The notes beneath the pieces were generated by a model. The model was not told the DNA's origin, searched no databases, and was given only the letters and a program-made list of their open reading frames with translations. 64,000 nucleotides of DNA, from the IMG/VR virus record IMGVR_UViG_3300035661_000047. One strand, written 5' to 3'. Positions within the stretch are counted from its first letter, which is position 1, and the number at the start of each line of letters is the position of its first letter. The translations under genes were made by a program, and so were the position numbers. Source of the DNA: a virus (lineage: Duplodnaviria > Heunggongvirae > Uroviricota > Caudoviricetes). Below are positions 5,081 through 64,000 of the stretch, one piece after another.

Positions 5081-5156
5081 GGGCTGTGATTGAGCTGGGG
5101 TTCTTGGCTGCTTTGCAAGCAGTTATCGGTGGGTTCGATTCCCACACGGTCCACCA
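5081..5156 (+). tRNA. tRNA-Ala (TGC)
   Basis: 76 nt; G3:U70 pair (Ala identity element), anticodon stem GCTGC/GCAGT, loop TTTGCAA, T-arm GTGGG-TTCGATT-CCCAC, CCA encoded; weak D stem. Confidence 0.65.
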
Positions 5157-5162
5157 TAATTT

Positions 5163-5238
5163 GCCCCATTAGCTCAGTTGGTAGAGCAACTGCATTGTAA
5201 GCAGTAGGTCGTCCGTTCGAGTCGGACAGAGGGCACCA
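5163..5238 (+). tRNA. tRNA-Thr (TGT)
   Basis: 76 nt; D arm GCTC-AGTTGGTA-GAGC, anticodon stem ACTGC/GCAGT with loop ATTGTAA, T-arm GTCCG-TTCGAGT-CGGAC, CCA encoded; two acceptor mismatches. Confidence 0.8.
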
Positions 5239-5245
5239 AGTCTAT

Positions 5246-5330
5246 GCGGTTGTGGCGGAATTGGTAGACGCGCAGCGTTGAGGTCGCTGTGGAGAAATCC
5301 GTGGAGGTTCGAGTCCTCTCAACCGCACCA
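5246..5330 (+). tRNA. tRNA-Leu (GAG), type II with long variable arm
   Basis: 85 nt; perfect acceptor GCGGTTG/CAACCGC, anticodon stem CAGCG/CGCTG with loop TTGAGGT, variable arm GGAGAAATCC, T-arm GGAGG-TTCGAGT-CCTCT, CCA. Confidence 0.85.
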
Positions 5331-5589
5331 TAACGTGCTTGATAGCTCCAGCTAGTGCAGTAACAGCTAGAGACTGCATGATGAGAATCCATCGGTCGCC
5401 CGTTGGAAACAAAAATCTAGATAAACTCTCAGGTATGCGAGTTAAATAGTTGAGTTGCTGGAGGCTACGGCCAATGAAGGTGACGGAGAGAATACCACAT
5501 GCGGGTAAGGTGTTTATGGATACATGCTAGCCTTCCAAGCTTGAGTAGACCAGATCGTTACTGGCTACCCGCTCCACGAATTCTTTGGC

Positions 5590-5666
5590 GTGACGTTATC
5601 TTAATATGGTAAAGAACTAGACTGTGAATCTGGTAAATATGGGTTCGAGTCAAGCGGTGGGCACCA
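5590..5666 (+). pseudogene. degenerate tRNA-like element (5' two-thirds folds as tRNA-His GTG; T-arm/acceptor disrupted)
   Basis: D arm TCTT-AATATGGTA-AAGA and anticodon arm CTAGA-CTGTGAA-TCTGG fold well; GGGTTCGAGTC T-loop present but its 3' half and the acceptor 3' strand do not pair; ends GGGCACCA. Confidence 0.3.
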
Positions 5667-5673
5667 GAATTGA

Positions 5674-5748
5674 TGCGGAGTAGTTCAGTTCGGTAGAACA
5701 GCAGCCTCATAAGCTGACGGTCGTGGGTTCAAAGCCAACCTCACGCAA
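5674..5748 (+). tRNA. tRNA-Met (CAT), imperfect
   Basis: D arm GTTC-AGTTCGGTA-GAAC, anticodon arm GCAGC-CTCATAA-GCTGA, T-arm GTGGG-TTCAAAG-CCAAC; acceptor has 2 mismatches and no encoded CCA. Confidence 0.5.
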
Positions 5749-5755
5749 CAAGATA

Positions 5756-5830
5756 GGATTCTTAGCACAGCGGTAGTGCGGCGCCCTTACAAGGCGTAGG
5801 TCGTAGGTTCGATCCCTACAGAATCCACCA
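5756..5830 (+). tRNA. tRNA-Val (TAC)
   Basis: 75 nt; acceptor GGATTCT/AGAATCC, D arm GCAC-AGCGGTA-GTGC, anticodon stem GCGCC/GGCGT loop CTTACAA, T-arm GTAGG-TTCGATC-CCTAC, CCA. Confidence 0.85.
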
Positions 5831-5919
5831 GTATTGGCAAAAACACGCAAGTGTTGCTGGTTCGAGTCCAGCCCTGTCCATTCCGGGCGGGTAGACAAAT
5901 CGGTAAAGTCGCCAAGTAT

Positions 5920-5992
5920 GCACCTATCGTCTAAAGGTTAGGACAACTGACTTTCTATCAGTGAATGTAGGGTTCAAGTCCCTCTAGGTGCT
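5920..5992 (+). tRNA. tRNA-Glu (TTC)
   Basis: Acceptor GCACCTA/TAGGTGC, D arm GTCT-AAAGGTTA-GGAC, anticodon stem ACTGA/TCAGT loop CTTTCTA, T-loop TTCAAGT; U at position 37 is atypical; no CCA. Confidence 0.6.
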
Positions 5993-6002
5993 ACAGACAT
6001 AT

Positions 6003-6077
6003 TGGCATATAGCTCAGCGGTAGAGCATCCGGCTGTTAACCGGACGGTCAGTGGTTCGATCCCACTTTTGCCAGCCA
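6003..6077 (+). tRNA. tRNA-Asn (GTT)
   Basis: Acceptor TGGCATA/TTTGCCA (U1-A72), D arm GCTC-AGCGGTA-GAGC, anticodon stem TCCGG/CCGGA loop CTGTTAA, T-arm AGTGG-TTCGATC-CCACT, G73 + CCA. Confidence 0.8.
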
Positions 6078-6083
6078 AAATAT

Positions 6084-6159
6084 GGACAGGTAGCTCAGAT
6101 GGTAGAGCGCCGGCCTGAAGAGCCGGGCGTCGTAGGTTCGATCCCTACCCTGTCTACCA
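6084..6159 (+). tRNA. tRNA-Phe (GAA)
   Basis: 76 nt; acceptor GGACAGG/CCTGTCT, D arm GCTC-AGATGGTA-GAGC, anticodon stem CCGGC/GCCGG loop CTGAAGA, T-arm GTAGG-TTCGATC-CCTAC, CCA. Confidence 0.85.
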
Positions 6160-6160
6160 T

Positions 6161-6236
6161 ATATCTATAAGACAATCGGAAGTCGGCAGGACTCCAAATC
6201 CTTGCAGTTGTGGTTCGAGTCCACAGGGATATGCCA
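6161..6236 (+). tRNA. tRNA-Trp (CCA)
   Basis: 76 nt; acceptor ATATCTA/GGGATAT, D loop AATCGGAA, anticodon loop CTCCAAA (CCA), T-arm TGTGG-TTCGAGT-CCACA, G73 + CCA. Confidence 0.75.
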
Positions 6237-6242
6237 AACAAT

Positions 6243-6319
6243 CTGGGTGTATTGTCAGTTGGTAGACGGCGAGCTTTGGAAGCTTGAGGCCGGTGGTTCG
6301 AGTCCACCCATCCAGACCA
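6243..6319 (+). tRNA. tRNA-Pro (TGG)
   Basis: 77 nt; acceptor CTGGGTG/CATCCAG, D arm TGTC-AGTTGGTA-GACG, anticodon stem CGAGC/GCTTG loop TTTGGAA, T-arm GGTGG-TTCGAGT-CCACC, A73 + CCA. Confidence 0.8.
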
Positions 6320-47481: not shown

Positions 47482-48105
47482 TCATGCTACCTCTAAGAAG
47501 CTATCGCACACCGAGTCGAACAGGTCTTTGAGGGTGCCGTTGTTATGGATGATGACATCGCCGTCATGGAAAGCGATACCAGCCTCACTGGCGTGTGCGC
47601 TGACGGTAGGAATGCTGTCTCGGACGATGTGCCATACTCGGCCACCCATTGAGCGAATCATTTTAGCTTCGTTCTCAAACCGCACATCTGTGACGACTGC
47701 ATGGTTGGAGTCTTCAGTGATTTGTTCGATCTTTCGGGCTGCTAGGATTCGCCAGATATCGTTGTTGACGATGTTGCGGCCCCACTCTGTTCCGAGCGTC
47801 TGCATCAGTTGGCGCGGAGACTTTCCAATCCACGGCACGACAACTTCTTTCAAACTGCCATTGAAGTGCTCTTCATTGAAGTCGAATAGCACGCGCATAG
47901 CGTCTCGAATTGGGTCGGCGAACGCAACTGTTTTTGCGTTGAATGCAGTCTTCAGCATTCCAGCGGCTGTATCTTTCCCGCTGCGAGCCTTGCCAGACAA
48001 GCCGATGATCTTCGGCTTAGGTGGGTCGAAAAATGAGGTCTTGTAAAGTTCTCCAAAACCGAGTTGCGGCATAACCGACGGGGATTCAACAATCATTGCT
48101 CTCAT
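47482..48105 (-). CDS. deoxynucleoside monophosphate kinase (P-loop)
   Basis: GLSGKARSGKDT Walker A and size (~200 aa) consistent with phage dNMP kinase. Confidence 0.65.
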   Translation of the reverse strand: MRAMIVESPSVMPQLGFGELYKTSFFDPPKPKIIGLSGKARSGKDTAAGMLKTAFNAKTVAFADPIRDAMRVLFDFNEEHFNGSLKEVVVPWIGKSPRQLMQTLGTEWGRNIVNNDIWRILAARKIEQITEDSNHAVVTDVRFENEAKMIRSMGGRVWHIVRDSIPTVSAHASEAGIAFHDGDVIIHNNGTLKDLFDSVCDSFLEVA

Positions 48106-48120
48106 TTCTCCATTAACTTG

Positions 48121-48353
48121 CTATGCAACCATGTTGCAAGCATTGATCCAAGTCCCGCTCCGAAACCAATGACAAGGGCGATAACGCCCAGCCATTTTAG
48201 CCACCGTAGCAACTACGTAAACTTCACACAGCGCCATCGCCATACTTGTCGGCAGAATCCACCAGTATTTCTTGTGGACTACATTAAACTGTTGCCACGA
48301 CTTGAGCGCGAAAAACAGGAATGACGAAGTGAAAGCAAGTGCGGAGTTTACCA
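48121..48353 (-). CDS. small membrane protein
   Basis: AAGGAAACT RBS + ATG 48353; two hydrophobic segments. Confidence 0.45.
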
Positions 48354-48361
48354 TAGTTTCC

Positions 48362-49975
48362 TTAGTTGGTTGCGTCTTCTTCAAGCACGATGTCTTGAAC
48401 TCGTGCTCGAATGACTTCAAACGTTTCGTCGATCAGCAGAGCACCATCTTCAAAGGCAGTGCGAAGCTCGCCAGCGGCCTCTTGCTCTTCCGATTGGCGG
48501 TCGAACATAACGTACTCGCCGTCGATCAGTTCAACTCGCATCAGACCGCGAGCAGACTTCTTGGTGCCATCATCCGTTGCAGGGTCTTTGAAAAGCTCCT
48601 TGAGCTGTCCGTCAACCACTGCTGCTGTGGCTTTTACTGCCATGCCGAGTGTATCACGACTCGCCATCTGGTATGTGTAAGACCCCACACCGAATACGAC
48701 ATTGTTGCTTGCGAAGCCACGTTGTTGCAGTCGTCGGAAGATGTCATCAGCGCGTTCCAAGGTGATGCTGTCGCCGTAGATCAAGCCAATGCACGGAGCG
48801 AGTTCGCGGTAGCCAAACTTGTTGACCGTTCCGCCAAACGTCTCCCACAGAAGCTCAATACTACCCTTGACTTCGTTCTCTGTCAACTCTTTTCCGGTCA
48901 GCCGGCACGTGTAAACAGTCTTGTATTTTACCTCTCCGATAGCGTACTCCCCTGGAAACTTGATGTTTTCGACGTAATACTCATCAGGGCGGTAGCCCGC
49001 AATAACGTGGGCAGGGTCGCCACTGTCAGGCCGCACAACAACCTTTGCGAGTCCGAGTTCGTTTGGCTTTCGAGCTTCGATGTCATCCTTCATCGCCGGC
49101 AGGAACTCGGTAAGAACTCGCCAGTAGTCATAGGTGTCTGAAACGACAGAGACGATGCCAGTCGGGTACGCTTCAGTGACCCAGCTCTTGATTGTGTCAA
49201 ATTCACCAAGCACGCTGCTGCCCAGCGACGTAACGCTGTGTTCGCTTGCAGGCACAGACGCAGCAATGAAATACTTGCTTGCATCGACGTTGTAGTAATC
49301 TTCAACGAGGTCGATTGCTGCAACCGTGTCAGTACCGCTGAACGACATCAGGTGGCCCAGACCCGTCAGCGCGCCGCCATTGCGGCCGATAACGCCACGG
49401 GCAGAGAAGTCGTGACACTGGAACATGACGTGGTTGCGATTGCCAACAGTTTGGTCTGCAAAGCTGTTGCACAGCGTCAGGAACTGGTACGCAGTCGTTG
49501 CAGCCGTCGTGGTTGCCCACAGCTCAGTCGAAAGCACTGTCTCGATATACGTGACCAACCATGCAAAGTCTTCATCAGTGTTGACGATGGTCAGCAGCGG
49601 CACCTTGAACGGGACTTTCGAGCCTTCAGGCAGGGCCTTGATCTTCAGCGGCAGGTAGCCCAGGTCGTGCAGGGCCTCGAAGTGAGCCATGCTTACTGCG
49701 CCGACTCCTAGCGAGGTTTCAACACGGCGCTTGAACTTGGCGATGACTTCAGCCTTCGGTTTGTTGAAGAATTCGCGGTTCCATTCTTCGATCAAGAATT
49801 CCTTGATGAAGTGTTGCAGGCCGGCAAAGACAACGCGCTTCTTGTCGTCGGCCCACTTGGCGTACTTACCGCTGCGGGCAGTGAAGTTGGCGTAAATCTT
49901 TGTCGCGCCATCGACCATGAACTTCTTGTGCGACAGCTTGTAGAAATCGGCTTGGGTCAGGGGGAAGCTCTTCAA
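48362..49975 (-). CDS. nicotinamide phosphoribosyltransferase family protein (NAMPT/NadV-like; candidate nicotinamide ADPR transferase Namat)
   Basis: 537 aa with NAMPT-family hallmarks (FYKLSH N-terminus; GLIYGDSITL; VVFGVGSYTYQ). Confidence 0.8.
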   Translation of the reverse strand: MKSFPLTQADFYKLSHKKFMVDGATKIYANFTARSGKYAKWADDKKRVVFAGLQHFIKEFLIEEWNREFFNKPKAEVIAKFKRRVETSLGVGAVSMAHFEALHDLGYLPLKIKALPEGSKVPFKVPLLTIVNTDEDFAWLVTYIETVLSTELWATTTAATTAYQFLTLCNSFADQTVGNRNHVMFQCHDFSARGVIGRNGGALTGLGHLMSFSGTDTVAAIDLVEDYYNVDASKYFIAASVPASEHSVTSLGSSVLGEFDTIKSWVTEAYPTGIVSVVSDTYDYWRVLTEFLPAMKDDIEARKPNELGLAKVVVRPDSGDPAHVIAGYRPDEYYVENIKFPGEYAIGEVKYKTVYTCRLTGKELTENEVKGSIELLWETFGGTVNKFGYRELAPCIGLIYGDSITLERADDIFRRLQQRGFASNNVVFGVGSYTYQMASRDTLGMAVKATAAVVDGQLKELFKDPATDDGTKKSARGLMRVELIDGEYVMFDRQSEEQEAAGELRTAFEDGALLIDETFEVIRARVQDIVLEEDATN

Positions 49976-49976
49976 A

Positions 49977-50762
49977 TCAAATCTCCTTTACGTGCGGCTT
50001 CGCCGCGTTGCTCATCAGGTTCGAGACGTAGATTGTATCGTAAAACTGTGTTAGAACTTCAGCACCTTTCGTGAAAAATCCGTGTGTAACGTATAGTGCC
50101 ATCGTCTTTGGCTTGTGCTTCTTCAGCACTTTTGCAAGCTCAATAAACGTCACACCGCCATCGCACAGGTCATCGACAACACATACTGTCTTTCCAGTGA
50201 TTTCTTCGCCACCATACACAGTAGTGTCAACGATCTTCCCAGTATAGTCTCGCTTCTTGTCTGCGACAAGCACTTTCGATTCAGGCCGGTTTGAAGTCAG
50301 CTTGAAAATCTTCTTACTTGCACCAGCGTCAGGTGCAACAAAGATATCGAAACTTGGCAGGCTCCACGCACACTCAGCCTGTTCTGTCACAACAAGGTTG
50401 TTGACGACTGCTTCAAGAACGTAGCTGTGGGCGTCCATTGTGTAGACGCTTGAGAAGTTCAAGCTGTTGATGTAGGCTGCAACCATCTTAAGGGCATAGC
50501 CCTCTCCTTGGTTGCAACGGTGGTCTTGGCGCGAGTATGGAAAGTACGGAATGTTCAGCGCGATGTGTTGCACGTCGTTGTGTCGAAGCGCATCAACCAG
50601 TTGCCCAAGGGCTAGAAGGTCGTCATTTCCTTCCCACAGGAGTGTAATCTCAACTTCCCCGTGCGTAAAGCCAGTTTCGATCTTGACACCTACTTCTCCG
50701 CACGGGAACTTCCACACTTTAACAGGGGTTTCCAACCCCGTCACACTCTTTGCAGAAAGCAT
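49977..50762 (-). CDS. ribose-phosphate pyrophosphokinase family protein (Prs-like; candidate ADPR-PP synthetase Adps)
   Basis: NIPYFPYSRQDHR, TMDAHS, VAPDAGASKK, CVVDDLCDGGVTF match PRPP-synthetase motifs; 2 nt from the NAMPT-like gene. Confidence 0.75.
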   Translation of the reverse strand: MLSAKSVTGLETPVKVWKFPCGEVGVKIETGFTHGEVEITLLWEGNDDLLALGQLVDALRHNDVQHIALNIPYFPYSRQDHRCNQGEGYALKMVAAYINSLNFSSVYTMDAHSYVLEAVVNNLVVTEQAECAWSLPSFDIFVAPDAGASKKIFKLTSNRPESKVLVADKKRDYTGKIVDTTVYGGEEITGKTVCVVDDLCDGGVTFIELAKVLKKHKPKTMALYVTHGFFTKGAEVLTQFYDTIYVSNLMSNAAKPHVKEI

Positions 50763-50909
50763 GAGTTACACCTCGTAGAAGCTGACACCTTCACTGTGGT
50801 ACCCGTTGCTGCTGCCGTGCCAGCGGATATCGACGTAGCCGTGGCGGGTTGCCAACTTGTAGAACGTCCACGTACCGTACTCGATACTCGGAGCATCCTG
50901 CGACTCCTC

Positions 50910-51125
50910 TTAAGCCACAAGAATTGGCGAGTCGATCAGGCCAGCAAGATCGCCGACAATAGACTCAATGCAGACGTGCTCGCAGCAGTCTTGATCGTGG
51001 TACATTTCGTAGGTCTTACCATCTTCAGCGTAGAAGACGATCTTGTCATCGCCTTGAACTTCGATTTCCTTGATGACCTTACCACTAAGGTCGCTGAAGT
51101 CACGGCTCTTGTCCCAAAATCCCAT
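50910..51125 (-). CDS. hypothetical protein (71 aa)
   Basis: AAGGAGATTGTAA RBS + ATG 51125. Confidence 0.5.
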   Translation of the reverse strand: MGFWDKSRDFSDLSGKVIKEIEVQGDDKIVFYAEDGKTYEMYHDQDCCEHVCIESIVGDLAGLIDSPILVA

Positions 51126-51737: not shown

Positions 51738-51813
51738 TGGCGCGTCTGGTAGGACTCGAACCCACAACCCGTAGCCTAGAACACTCTTGCTCTATCCTTT
51801 GAGCTACAGACGC
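51738..51813 (-). tRNA. tRNA-Arg (TCT)-like, weak anticodon stem
   Basis: Reverse complement GCGTCTG-TA-GCTC-AAAGGATA-GAGC-A-AGAGT-GTTCTAG-GCTAC-GGGTT-GTGGG-TTCGAGT-CCTAC-CAGACGC-G-CCA: perfect acceptor, D and T arms, 76 nt with CCA; anticodon stem has two mismatches. Confidence 0.55.
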
Positions 51814-54389: not shown

Positions 54390-54803
54390 TCATTTTGCCA
54401 GCAACGCGATTTGTTCGGCGTACTTCTTTACGCGCTTCATGTCGCCTCGCAGGATGCTTTCTCGCATATTCATCATCAAGTCCACAAGCTTGACTTTCTT
54501 AGCCAGAGGATTCGCCTTCACTTCTGTGAGGTATTCCTCCCGTGACTGCCAACTCTTTTTGTGAGTAATGGCAAGAACAGCCTCAACGATGTTGTCTTCA
54601 AACAACGCTTCAAGAAGCTCAACCTTGCAGGCTGTGTCTTCTAGCATGTCGTGAAGCATTCCAATTATTGCAAGACGTTCATCACCGTCATCTTTCAGTG
54701 CCGAAGAAACCATTTCAAGATGGTACATATACGGATGGCGTCCGTACATCTGCCCAGCGTGGAATTTCTCTGCCAGACCCCTTGCCAGTTCTAAATCTTT
54801 CAT
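54390..54803 (-). CDS. HD-domain phosphohydrolase
   Basis: H..E..(spacer)..HDMLED metal-binding signature in a 137-aa protein. Confidence 0.65.
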   Translation of the reverse strand: MKDLELARGLAEKFHAGQMYGRHPYMYHLEMVSSALKDDGDERLAIIGMLHDMLEDTACKVELLEALFEDNIVEAVLAITHKKSWQSREEYLTEVKANPLAKKVKLVDLMMNMRESILRGDMKRVKKYAEQIALLAK

Positions 54804-54922: not shown

Positions 54923-55294
54923 TCAGTACTTTCTCCACCCGTCTGGGAGGTCACAATTAGATGGCGCAAACTTGAACATAGGCGATATGTCTGCGTCTGT
55001 GTATCCGGCAAGGCCGCAGCCCACCCGCGTCACTAGGAATTTCTTATTCCAGTTCTGCCTTGCGTAGAGGATGAATTTTCTCACATGCTTCTCTACAGTG
55101 TCAAGCGGCAGCGTGCGAATGTTGTGGTCTTTTGTTGGAATGGCATAGGCCATCCCTGTTGGACCCTCGCCAACACCATATACAGCCCCGTAGAGCCGTT
55201 TTGCGTCTAAAGCTGCACCTCTACCATGCCTGCCTGCTAAATTCGATCCAAAGACGAATATGCGATCCATGTAGCTCCAATGAAAAGCCCGCAC
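54923..55294 (-). CDS. hypothetical Rossmann-like (SLOG/LOG-like) protein
   Basis: RIFVFGSNLAGRHGRGAA Gly-rich N-terminal motif; 123 aa. Confidence 0.45.
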   Translation of the reverse strand: MRAFHWSYMDRIFVFGSNLAGRHGRGAALDAKRLYGAVYGVGEGPTGMAYAIPTKDHNIRTLPLDTVEKHVRKFILYARQNWNKKFLVTRVGCGLAGYTDADISPMFKFAPSNCDLPDGWRKY

Positions 55295-63103: not shown

Positions 63104-64000
63104 TTACTCCATGTTCTCGCCGGGAATCAACTTTCGGTGCTGAATCCACCCGTGAAGGTTGCCAGACCACAGACGGCCTTGACGATCCATGTGGCTAATC
63201 CCACGCTCCCACGTATGCGGCATTGTAGGGATGTTCCAATCATCTTGATCGTCCGAGTCTCCAAACGTCGTTGGCATCATCGGAGTTGCCTGATGCTCCA
63301 GCGCAGATGCGTGCTTACGCTTGTCACCGACAAGTCGGGCATAGACTTCTTCACTCTTTTCGAGGCCGTAGTCCGTGTTTCTGAAGCTCACCGCCGCCGA
63401 ACGTGCAGATGATACATGAATTGCTTCACGCTCGTCAAGCGGAATCCAGAAACCTTCTTTTTCAGCTTCGATGAAGTAGTTAAGAGTTCCTGTGAGATTT
63501 CTCACAGCTTTGACATACGGAAGATGCCATTCGCCGTCTTCCAGCTCCAGAGGGACGCTCCCAGCCATTGCCAGCTTCATGCAGCGCGACAGCTCTGCAA
63601 TCGTCGGGTCCGCTGCATCGTCGTCTCGCAGCCAGAAGAAGTTACCGAACTCCGTGCCAGAAACAACAGTTTTCATCATCTGGAAAGGCTCAACAAGTCG
63701 ATTGTACACTTGCTTGTGGTATCCAGCCTCGTACATGCCTTTTGCGAACTCTACAGCGTGTTCCCGAGCTTCGCTCCAGATGTGCTCAGGGCTACCTTCA
63801 GCTCGCCAGAAGTCAGATTCTACTTCAATGTTGGCGTCGAAGTCAACACCCTTGTCTTGCATTCCAGGGTTTGCTTGCCCGAAGCGCACAGGGCGTGCAG
63901 TAAGCTGCTCGACCATCTTTAGGAATGGGATTGCTCGGCTGCTTGCAGAGTTTCGGGACAACATTCGGTGCGTGTTGAACTCTGCGAGGATCAGCCGTGG
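63104..64000 (-). CDS. thyX: flavin-dependent thymidylate synthase ThyX-like (gene continues beyond window end)
   Basis: Frame open to 64000; THRMLSRNSASSR resembles the ThyX RHR...S..R signature, and AAVSF...HASALEH resembles a ThyX segment; confidence moderate. Confidence 0.5.
   Translation of the reverse strand, partial: PRLILAEFNTHRMLSRNSASSRAIPFLKMVEQLTARPVRFGQANPGMQDKGVDFDANIEVESDFWRAEGSPEHIWSEAREHAVEFAKGMYEAGYHKQVYNRLVEPFQMMKTVVSGTEFGNFFWLRDDDAADPTIAELSRCMKLAMAGSVPLELEDGEWHLPYVKAVRNLTGTLNYFIEAEKEGFWIPLDEREAIHVSSARSAAVSFRNTDYGLEKSEEVYARLVGDKRKHASALEHQATPMMPTTFGDSDDQDDWNIPTMPHTWERGISHMDRQGRLWSGNLHGWIQHRKLIPGENME

Follow-up and report, generated by a model that had tools for sequence, protein, structure and literature searches.

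In the window analyzed here, a 64,000-nt stretch of an uncultured tailed phage (Caudoviricetes; IMG/VR record IMGVR_UViG_3300035661_000047), a gene for a NAMPT-like protein of 537 aa (namat) directly follows a gene for a Prs-like protein of 261 aa (adps). Does this pair serve ordinary nicotinamide salvage, in which phosphoribosyl pyrophosphate (PRPP) is used to make nicotinamide mononucleotide (NMN), or does it rebuild nicotinamide adenine dinucleotide (NAD+) from ADP-ribose (ADPR), as do Adps and Namat, the two enzymes of the phage NAD+ reconstitution pathway NARP1? We assign a probability of about 0.86 to the latter, that is, to the pair being a core NARP1 operon, predicted by homology to convert ADPR to ADPR-pyrophosphate (ADPR-PP) and then to NAD+. 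An earlier interpretation made from the DNA letters alone (the sequence-only reading) had proposed a NARP1-type pair, and this proposal is supported on every in silico point: the clades, the signatures and a genome without an NMN adenylyltransferase (NMNAT).

In such an operon, a host NADase effector (SIR2, TIR, DSR, SEFIR, Kongming-type, or similar) would cleave NAD+ to ADPR and nicotinamide; Adps would perform the ATP-dependent pyrophosphorylation of the distal ribose of ADPR (ADPR + ATP -> ADPR-PP + AMP), and Namat would join the product to nicotinamide (ADPR-PP + nicotinamide -> NAD+ + pyrophosphate). The route would need neither an NMN intermediate nor an NMNAT. We infer these activities and the counter-defense role of the window pair from homology to characterized enzymes.

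The gene pair and its Adps and Namat signatures

The sequence-only reading described a NAMPT-family and a Prs-family gene lying 2 nt apart. The coordinates and lengths of both open reading frames (ORFs), the two motifs quoted for the Prs-like protein (IPYFPYSRQD and VVDDLCDGG), and the adjacency are all confirmed; the distance is not, as the adps stop codon (TGA, 49979-49977) and the namat start codon (TTG, 49975-49973) leave an intergenic gap of 1 nt. Because the Shine-Dalgarno sequence AAAGGAG sits 7 nt before this TTG, inside adps, both the TTG start and translational coupling of the two genes are supported. Promoter and terminator scans yielded consensus-level matches only, in numbers near those for shuffled sequences, and were left unused.

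The 537-aa protein matches phrog_448 (“nicotinamide phosphoribosyl transferase,” 1e-181) in PHROGs and NAPRTase (1.9e-36) in Pfam, with NAMPT_N below its cut-off, and the 261-aa protein matches phrog_619 (“ribose-phosphate pyrophosphokinase,” 2e-75), Pribosyltran_N (8.9e-10), and Pribosyltran (7.9e-08). By PHROG and Pfam models the family assignments of both proteins are unambiguous, the PHROG values lying far beyond chance. The names given by Pfam, PHROG, and NCBIfam are also those expected of classical salvage, in which a true Prs and a Nampt would make PRPP and then NMN, and host NadR, NadM, NadD, or PncC would finish NAD+; in line with this alternative, the 537-aa protein passes the NCBIfam PRK09198 equivalog cut-off (508 vs. 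405 bits). The 261-aa protein, on the other side, fails all NCBIfam Prs equivalog and narrow subfamily models (54-98 bits vs. cut-offs of 296-536, e.g., 98 vs. 296), the only Prs model passed being the broad TIGR01251 (120 vs. 113 bits), and this argues against a true Prs.

Adps has been described as a well-supported clade apart from prokaryotic Prs (bioRxiv 10.1101/2024.02.11.579819). We placed the 261-aa protein in a neighbor-joining (NJ) tree of 34 sequences including 21 metagenomic relatives. The references on the Adps side were the characterized Adps of ICP1 and SPbetaL1, Adps of Bas62, a close relative of the tested Bas63 enzyme, and three Prs-like proteins paired with NAMPT homologs, one each of phage phiA8-29, an Acinetobacter contig, and a B. 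thuringiensis plasmid; canonical Prs were represented by E. coli, B. subtilis, Rhodococcus, Nostoc, and Microcystis phage MaAM05. The ICP1 Adps sequence was taken from GenBank records, the first ICP1 isolate having been discarded for a truncated adps ORF. The window protein falls inside the clade of ICP1, SPbetaL1, and Bas62 Adps, with the five canonical Prs excluded in 100/100 bootstraps. Its BLASTP scores are 176 bits with the Prs-like protein of phiA8-29, 154 bits with Bas62 Adps (40% identity), and 116 bits with ICP1 Adps.

The substrate site agrees with this placement. In ICP1 Adps, ADPR is contacted by F18, R87, F92, H121, D161, D212, and D213, the catalytic Lys185 lies on a beta-hairpin, a remodelled PP loop (C215-S220) binds the ATP donor, and the C-terminal alpha11-alpha12 helices are lost (PMC13586617). 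Residues F19, R78, H112, D145, K169, D197, and D198 of the window protein correspond to F18, R87, H121, D161, K185, D212, and D213 of ICP1 Adps, respectively; F92 is replaced by Cys (C83), as in Bas62. The PP loop of the window protein is DDLCDGGVTF (C200-D-G-G-V-T205 followed by Phe), compared to DDICDGAASF in ICP1, DDICDGGRTF in Bas62, and DDMIDTGGTL in E. coli Prs, and DDLCDGGATF is found in 46 of 120 relatives. The hairpin KKRDYTGKI fits the pattern K-x-R-[DN]-..-TG-x-I, present in eight out of nine Adps-clade references and in none of six canonical or divergent bacterial Prs. The canonical alpha11-alpha12 helices are missing, the protein ending about 50 residues before E. coli Prs. Thus, while the fold and the predicted pyrophosphoryl transfer from ATP are common to the window protein and canonical class I Prs (E. 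coli, B. subtilis, human PRPS1), identity to the latter is 25-29%, and the DTGGT ribose-5-phosphate loop, the KRRPRxN flexible loop, and the C-terminal regulatory helices are gone. A Protein Data Bank (PDB) sequence search with the 261-aa protein returned only canonical PRPS, from a set that did not include the ICP1 Adps structures.

The NAMPT-like protein was placed in an NJ tree of 12 sequences, where it groups with the Namat of SPbetaL1, ICP1, and Bas62 in 100/100 bootstraps; the NARP2-type Nampt of Aes508, Marchewka, Roth22, and D525 are excluded from the Namat clade, also in 100/100. In Aes508 and Marchewka, the Nampt gene has a gene for an NMNAT/Nudix protein beside it or nearby; in Roth22 and D525, none is annotated within 4 kb. 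The best PDB sequence matches of the 537-aa protein are 9w5x/9w5w (423 bits), whose residue numbering fits SPbetaL1 Namat (PMC12774641), followed by the related phage-type entry 9ke8 (377 bits). With human and Xanthomonas Nampt it has in common the fold and the predicted attack of nicotinamide on a ribosyl-1-pyrophosphate, but Nampt structures score under half the bits of the Namat structure (Xanthomonas 186 bits, mammalian NAMPT 171-178 bits).

The catalytic core is kept, with counterparts of SPbetaL1 D13, Y15, F189, R192, D215, R306, and D308, and His246 as the catalytic histidine. The variable clamp loop (SCL) of Namat gives a further stacking residue: the third position holds Arg, Lys, or Tyr, with stacking by the fourth residue in the case of Lys or Tyr, and the combination of Lys followed by an aromatic residue is described for Bas63-type enzymes (PMC12774641). 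The SCL of the window protein, S-G-K-Y, fits this rule, as does H-G-K-Y of ICP1. The clamp helix (SCH) reads GSYTYQMASRD in the window protein, GSFTYQYNTRD in SPbetaL1 Namat, and GSYTYQYVTRD in ICP1 Namat, as opposed to GGGLLQ.. in NARP2-type Nampt; its length, GS, Tyr3, Thr4, Tyr5, Gln6, and RD fit the Namat consensus.

A Met/Ser variant of the Namat adenine clamp

Several observations weigh against reading the pair as Adps and Namat. Both trees are small NJ trees, not maximum-likelihood trees of the full families. SPbetaL1 Adps (80 bits) is by BLASTP no closer to the 261-aa protein than E. coli Prs (85 bits), and hence the placement of the window protein with SPbetaL1 Adps rests on the tree and the motifs. 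Namat enzymes retain PRPP-to-NMN activity in vitro (PMC12774641), so that some classical PRPP activity would be expected of the window Namat. Finally, SCH position 7 is Met instead of the consensus Tyr or Phe (Tyr396 in SPbetaL1) and position 9 is Ser instead of Thr (Thr398); in the SPbetaL1 structure Tyr396 and Thr398 both touch adenine (PMC12774641). The in vitro use of PRPP and the one non-aromatic substitution in the clamp also speak for classical salvage.

The clamp residues vary among the relatives of the window Namat. In the 120 closest metagenomic relatives, position 7 is Tyr in 69, Met in 33, His in nine, Leu in five, Phe in three, and Ala in one; the pairs at positions 7 and 9 include Tyr/Thr (68), Met/Ser (29), Leu/Ser (5), Met/Thr (4), and Tyr/Ser (1). 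Position 9 is Ser in 34 out of 38 relatives with Met or Leu at position 7 and in two out of 72 with Tyr or Phe, these counts not being phylogenetically independent. Among cultured phages, position 7 is Met in Klebsiella phage Madison and Cys in Pakpunavirus Kat, each with an adjoining Adps-type gene. As both the relatives and cultured phages vary at this position, Met at the clamp is a recurrent natural variant and probably not evidence against membership in the Namat family. The replacement of Tyr/Thr by Met/Ser shows how the Namat selectivity clamp varies in nature, and the published clamp model could be tested on it.

In a further reading, which we regard as improbable, the Namat of this lineage would have a remodelled adenine clamp, which could mark a subfamily with altered or relaxed donor specificity. 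Such an enzyme could use both PRPP and ADPR-PP, or accept another ADPR-derived pyrophosphate; an unlinked macro-like protein of the same phage might feed it with ADPR freed from ADP-ribosylated targets; and a deoxynucleoside monophosphate (dNMP) kinase encoded after the operon might trigger a Kongming-type NADase defense, which the operon then neutralizes. Phage deoxynucleotide kinases are reported to trigger the NAD+-depleting Kongming defense (PMC12774641).

NMNAT, relatives of the pair, and known pathways

PRPP-using phage Nampt belong to another pathway, NARP2: the Namat clade is distinct from the KVP40-type Nampt clade, 94% of which is linked to Nmnat, and no case of NARP1 and NARP2 in one phage is known (bioRxiv 10.1101/2024.02.11.579819). 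NARP2 (NadV and NatV of KVP40) likewise has a NAMPT-family enzyme and likewise rebuilds NAD+ against depletion. Its Nampt, however, forms a clade of its own, in which the loop is of the GGGLLQ type and the SCL is short, is 26-29% identical to the window protein, and needs a bifunctional NMNAT/Nudix protein, for which the window phage genome holds no gene. The sequence-only reading found no such gene in the module; this holds, and extends to the rebuilt genome of 77,474 bp. With NatV of Aes508 as the query, tblastn over the window and the full genome gave nothing (E >= 0.2), and neither did tblastn with an Acinetobacter protein that is a Nudix-type regulator (NrtR) and not an NMNAT (E >= 0.2). 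A phmmer --max search with two phage NatV as queries covered all 1,072 six-frame ORFs of 40 aa or longer and gave nothing better than E = 0.4, while in a positive control the two NatV found each other at 1.5e-29. No NUDIX domain was seen in Pfam scans of the window ORFs (concatenated into pseudo-proteins, the two largest structural ORFs excluded) or among precomputed Pfam matches of the off-window genes. As Pfam missed the NMNAT domain even in the positive-control NatV, the absence of NMNAT rests on the NUDIX domain, tblastn, and phmmer, and not on CTP_transf_like.

Experiments on characterized systems bear on the same alternative. Counter-defense by the Bas63 operon is independent of host pncC or nadR, and SPbetaL1 Adps gives no product with the classical substrate (bioRxiv 10.1101/2024.02.11.579819). 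Together with the full bootstrap support for Adps and Namat clade membership and the Prs features missing from the 261-aa protein, this makes classical salvage an unlikely explanation of the pair.

The order of the two genes is conserved in diverse related phage contigs. NARP1 has been found in 859 phage genomes, 4.3% of those analyzed, and 97% of Adps-clade genes have a Namat homolog nearby, within 10 genes (bioRxiv 10.1101/2024.02.11.579819). We found adps directly before a NAPRTase gene in three diverse metagenomic phage contigs with relatives at 48-59% identity, one of them syntenic with the window, the downstream dNMP kinase included, and no NMNAT, Macro, or RyR gene near the pair in any of the three. 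The order of adps then namat also occurs in cultured phages. Such strict linkage of adps and namat across unrelated phage backbones argues for a joint pathway.

The NARP1 operons of Bas63/JohannRWettstein, SPbetaL1, ICP1, and Fado (bioRxiv 10.1101/2024.02.11.579819) have the same order of adps and namat and proteins of the same clades; the catalytic residues and most substrate-contact residues of characterized NARP1 are the same, and the genome is likewise without NMNAT. An insertion of about 40 aa after the RPDSGDP motif is common to the window Namat and those of Bas62 (Bas63-type) and phiA8-29. The differences are that the window proteins are only 33-44% identical to any characterized NARP1 enzyme, that the window Adps is short, and that the phage backbone is a distant kin of Aeromonas Plateaulakevirus and Pseudomonas Pakpunavirus. 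With two extended forms, NARP1-AP, which adds the Macro-domain phosphatase Adpp (bioRxiv 10.64898/2026.01.28.702374), and NARP1 with the RyR-domain glycosidase RyDEP (bioRxiv 10.64898/2026.05.28.727677), the window operon has the core Adps and Namat genes in common. In the RyDEP preprint, NARP1 enzymes were identified with DefenseFinder (bioRxiv 10.64898/2026.05.28.727677). No Pfam or PHROG match to a Macro or RyR gene was found among the ORFs in or beside the window operon; the sole macro-like candidate lies 4.2 kb away and is DarG/TARG1-like by fold, in a comparison that did not extend to Poa1p/Adpp.

The closest annotated relative of the window Namat is an Acinetobacter NadV (50% identity), from a contig deposited as “Acinetobacter phage MD-2021a” (CAKLQF020000015.1, L003). 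This contig was rejected as a phage, being a bacterial chromosomal contig with genes for iron transport and efflux pumps. The gene cluster was likewise rejected as prs-nadV-nadM, which would favor classical salvage, since its third gene, annotated as “bifunctional NMNAT/ADPR pyrophosphatase,” encodes the regulator NrtR (Pfam NUDIX and NrtR_WHD) and not an NMNAT. The Prs paralog of the cluster belongs to the Adps clade, and the SCH of the NadV (GSFTYNYLTRD) is of the Namat type. Rodionov et al. list “prs-nadV-nrtR” for Acinetobacter ADP1, report that ADPR releases the NrtR repressor from the operator of the Shewanella prs-nadV operon, and remark that a dedicated Prs paralog had no explained role (PMC2330246). 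Bacterial prs-nadV(-nrtR) operons, as in Acinetobacter, Shewanella, and others (PMC2330246), differ from the window operon in being chromosomal and NrtR-regulated, and have historically been read as PRPP-dependent nicotinamide salvage. Bacterial NARP1 exists, in Paenibacillus foliorum (PMC12774641). Thus, the apparent counter-example from Acinetobacter turns into mild support, with NrtR in place of NMNAT, an Adps-clade Prs paralog, and a Namat-type clamp, and the comparison suggests that the classic gammaproteobacterial prs-nadV-nrtR operons are NARP1-like.

Some unusual forms of the two genes were seen among the relatives. A metagenomic Namat of 806 aa (P0139), 68-72% identical to the window protein, was considered as an Adps-Namat fusion and rejected: it has no Adps part, and carries an intein-like insertion of about 327 aa within RPD|SGDP, beginning with Cys and ending in ...VCGN. 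The family phrog_12872 (547 positions) is matched by the window Adps at positions 14-222 and by the window Namat at positions 220-542, and so has the look of an Adps N-half joined to a Namat C-half, in a chimera or a fusion; it could represent mis-annotated frameshifted genes or a real fusion. In Vibrio phage ICP1 isolate 2019_Mat_D (L002) the adps frame ends before the PP loop (242 codons), and in this isolate and 2017_Mat_K (L010) the namat frame lacks the N-terminal ~30 residues present in a Yemeni isolate (L009). NARP1 thus appears to be disrupted in some ICP1 lineages.

Phage genome and neighborhood of the operon

By exact-protein look-ups, the pair occurs on a Logan contig of 71,136 bp and on several JGI contigs, of which one has 77,601 bp. 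Joining the window with overlapping flanks gave a circularly consistent genome of 77,474 bp (overlap of 2,207 nt, 100% identity), of which the window is a circular permutation, the off-window sequence being reached via the primase and ClpP-like genes, as a look-up of the last window ORF (63104-63964) gave no record. No deposited phage has a DNA polymerase more than 57% identical to the one encoded here; the best matches are from Aeromonas phages phiA047 and PAc, and Pakpunavirus-like Pseudomonas phages come next (about 50%). When the 3.8-kb module was compared by megablast to 50,697 phage records, no match was obtained; hence, the module has no close cultured relative.

On the minus strand, the genes run in the order primase/helicase, UvrD-like helicase, a 115-aa protein, an HD_4 protein, DNA polymerase, tRNA-Arg(TCT), two small ORFs, the DUF7448 gene, adps, namat, a 77-aa ORF, dNMP kinase, small ORFs, a single-stranded DNA-binding (SSB)-like protein and, further on, ribonucleotide reductase (Table 1).

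Table 1. Coordinates of the operon and of other features in the window.
Feature	Position	Strand	Description and basis
ten tRNA genes	5081-6319	+	cluster near terminase gene
dNMP kinase	47482-48096	-	Pfam DNMK 2e-33; after namat and one small ORF
77-aa ORF	48121-48354	-	between namat and dNMP kinase; hydrophobic stretches
namat	48362-49975	-	537 aa, TTG start, NAMPT-like; ORF list
adps	49977-50762	-	261 aa, ATG start, Prs-like; ORF list
Shine-Dalgarno AAAGGAG for namat	49983-49989	-	within adps 3' end, 7 nt upstream of TTG; sequence reading
DUF7448 gene	50766-51125	-	directly upstream of adps; in-frame stop TAA at 50907-50909
Shine-Dalgarno-like GAGGTG	50769-50774	-	6 nt upstream of adps ATG; consensus match only
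tRNA-Arg(TCT)	51738-51813	-	alone, between DNA polymerase gene and small ORFs preceding the pair
HD_4 protein	54390-54803	-	137 aa, stand-alone; phrog_990, TIGR00691 N-terminus; RelA/SpoT hydrolase-like
115-aa macro-like protein	54923-55270	-	NCBIfam “A1S_2505 family phage non-structural protein,” phrog_2072; no Pfam domain

This position within a replication and nucleotide module, with DNA polymerase upstream, dNMP kinase, the SSB-like protein, and ribonucleotide reductase downstream, and a ThyX-like ORF at the window end, would suit a third explanation, namely, that both genes are auxiliaries of nucleotide metabolism, the Prs-like protein raising PRPP for phage nucleotides and the NAMPT-like protein acting as a general NAD+ booster with no role in defense. 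The sequence arguments raised against classical salvage apply here as well, and so does the strict adps-namat linkage across unrelated backbones. Moreover, the pair is missing from the polymerase-to-SSB interval of vB_PseuGesM_254 and phiA047, relatives with a similar replication module, and thus behaves as accessory cargo of this module and not as a core metabolic gene. We therefore consider this explanation very unlikely.

Upstream of adps, the DUF7448 gene is interrupted by an in-frame stop: it encodes 71 aa up to the TAA and, in frame beyond it, another 46 aa, the frame closing 3 nt upstream of the adps ATG. If the stop is read through, the product would be 119 aa covering positions 2-104 of the 104-position Pfam model with 93.8 bits, vs. 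46.6 bits for the fragment alone. The stop is not an assembly error, as the surrounding sequence is identical at seven loci retrieved from several samples. The tRNAs found in the phage include no suppressor, and the gene may be a pseudogene or a read-through gene. The in-frame stop next to adps, together with the disrupted adps or namat ORFs of some ICP1 isolates, would fit a fourth explanation, that the pair itself is a decaying or inactive remnant. Yet both ORFs are full length, all checked catalytic residues are intact, and the Adps protein sequence is identical on nine contigs from several samples, which makes a remnant extremely unlikely.

Downstream of the operon, the dNMP kinase follows namat and one small gene in the syntenic metagenomic relative (L035) as well. 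It might be a trigger paired with its antidote, or might merely belong to a shared nucleotide-metabolism module. The intervening 77-aa ORF has no Pfam or PHROG match, and a 244-aa gene of another kind takes its place in the syntenic relative.

The 115-aa protein belongs to a very large, conserved family, with about 8,000 matches, the best 120 of which are 63-73% identical to it. Its AlphaFold2 model (pLDDT 89.8) matches macrodomains only, including DarG, TARG1/C6orf130, and viral nsP3, with TM of 0.64-0.70 and a best E of 6e-4. Judging from this model, the protein could bind or remove ADP-ribose, e.g., as a DarG-like anti-DarT factor. The gene stands 4.2 kb upstream of the pair, on the far side of the DNA polymerase gene, and has no link to the operon. 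By its family matches, the HD_4 protein may act as a pyrophosphohydrolase of (p)ppGpp or another nucleotide.

The first window ORF is the 5' end of an RNA ligase gene that continues into the off-window 13.5 kb (L019 5014-10564; L022/L023 2028-3555). Also encoded in these 13.5 kb are a 114-aa RtcB fragment, a YAcAr (SLOG-family) protein, a serine recombinase, a DNA ligase, and an HNH/AP2 endonuclease.

The operon would be a new instance of a known pathway and reveals no new mechanism; the residual interest lies only in the Met/Ser variant of the clamp, the upstream macro-like protein, and the nearby dNMP kinase. If the NARP1 assignment is correct, it extends the pathway to a phage lineage without a close cultured relative, and this uncultured phage would neutralize NAD+-depleting immunity broadly, including Thoeris I, DSR1/2, SIR2-HerA, SEFIR, Kongming, and others. 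With regard to NAD metabolism, the bacterial prs-nadV-nrtR operons, long a puzzle, are by sequence grouped with Adps and Namat, in agreement with a NARP1-like reading of these operons.

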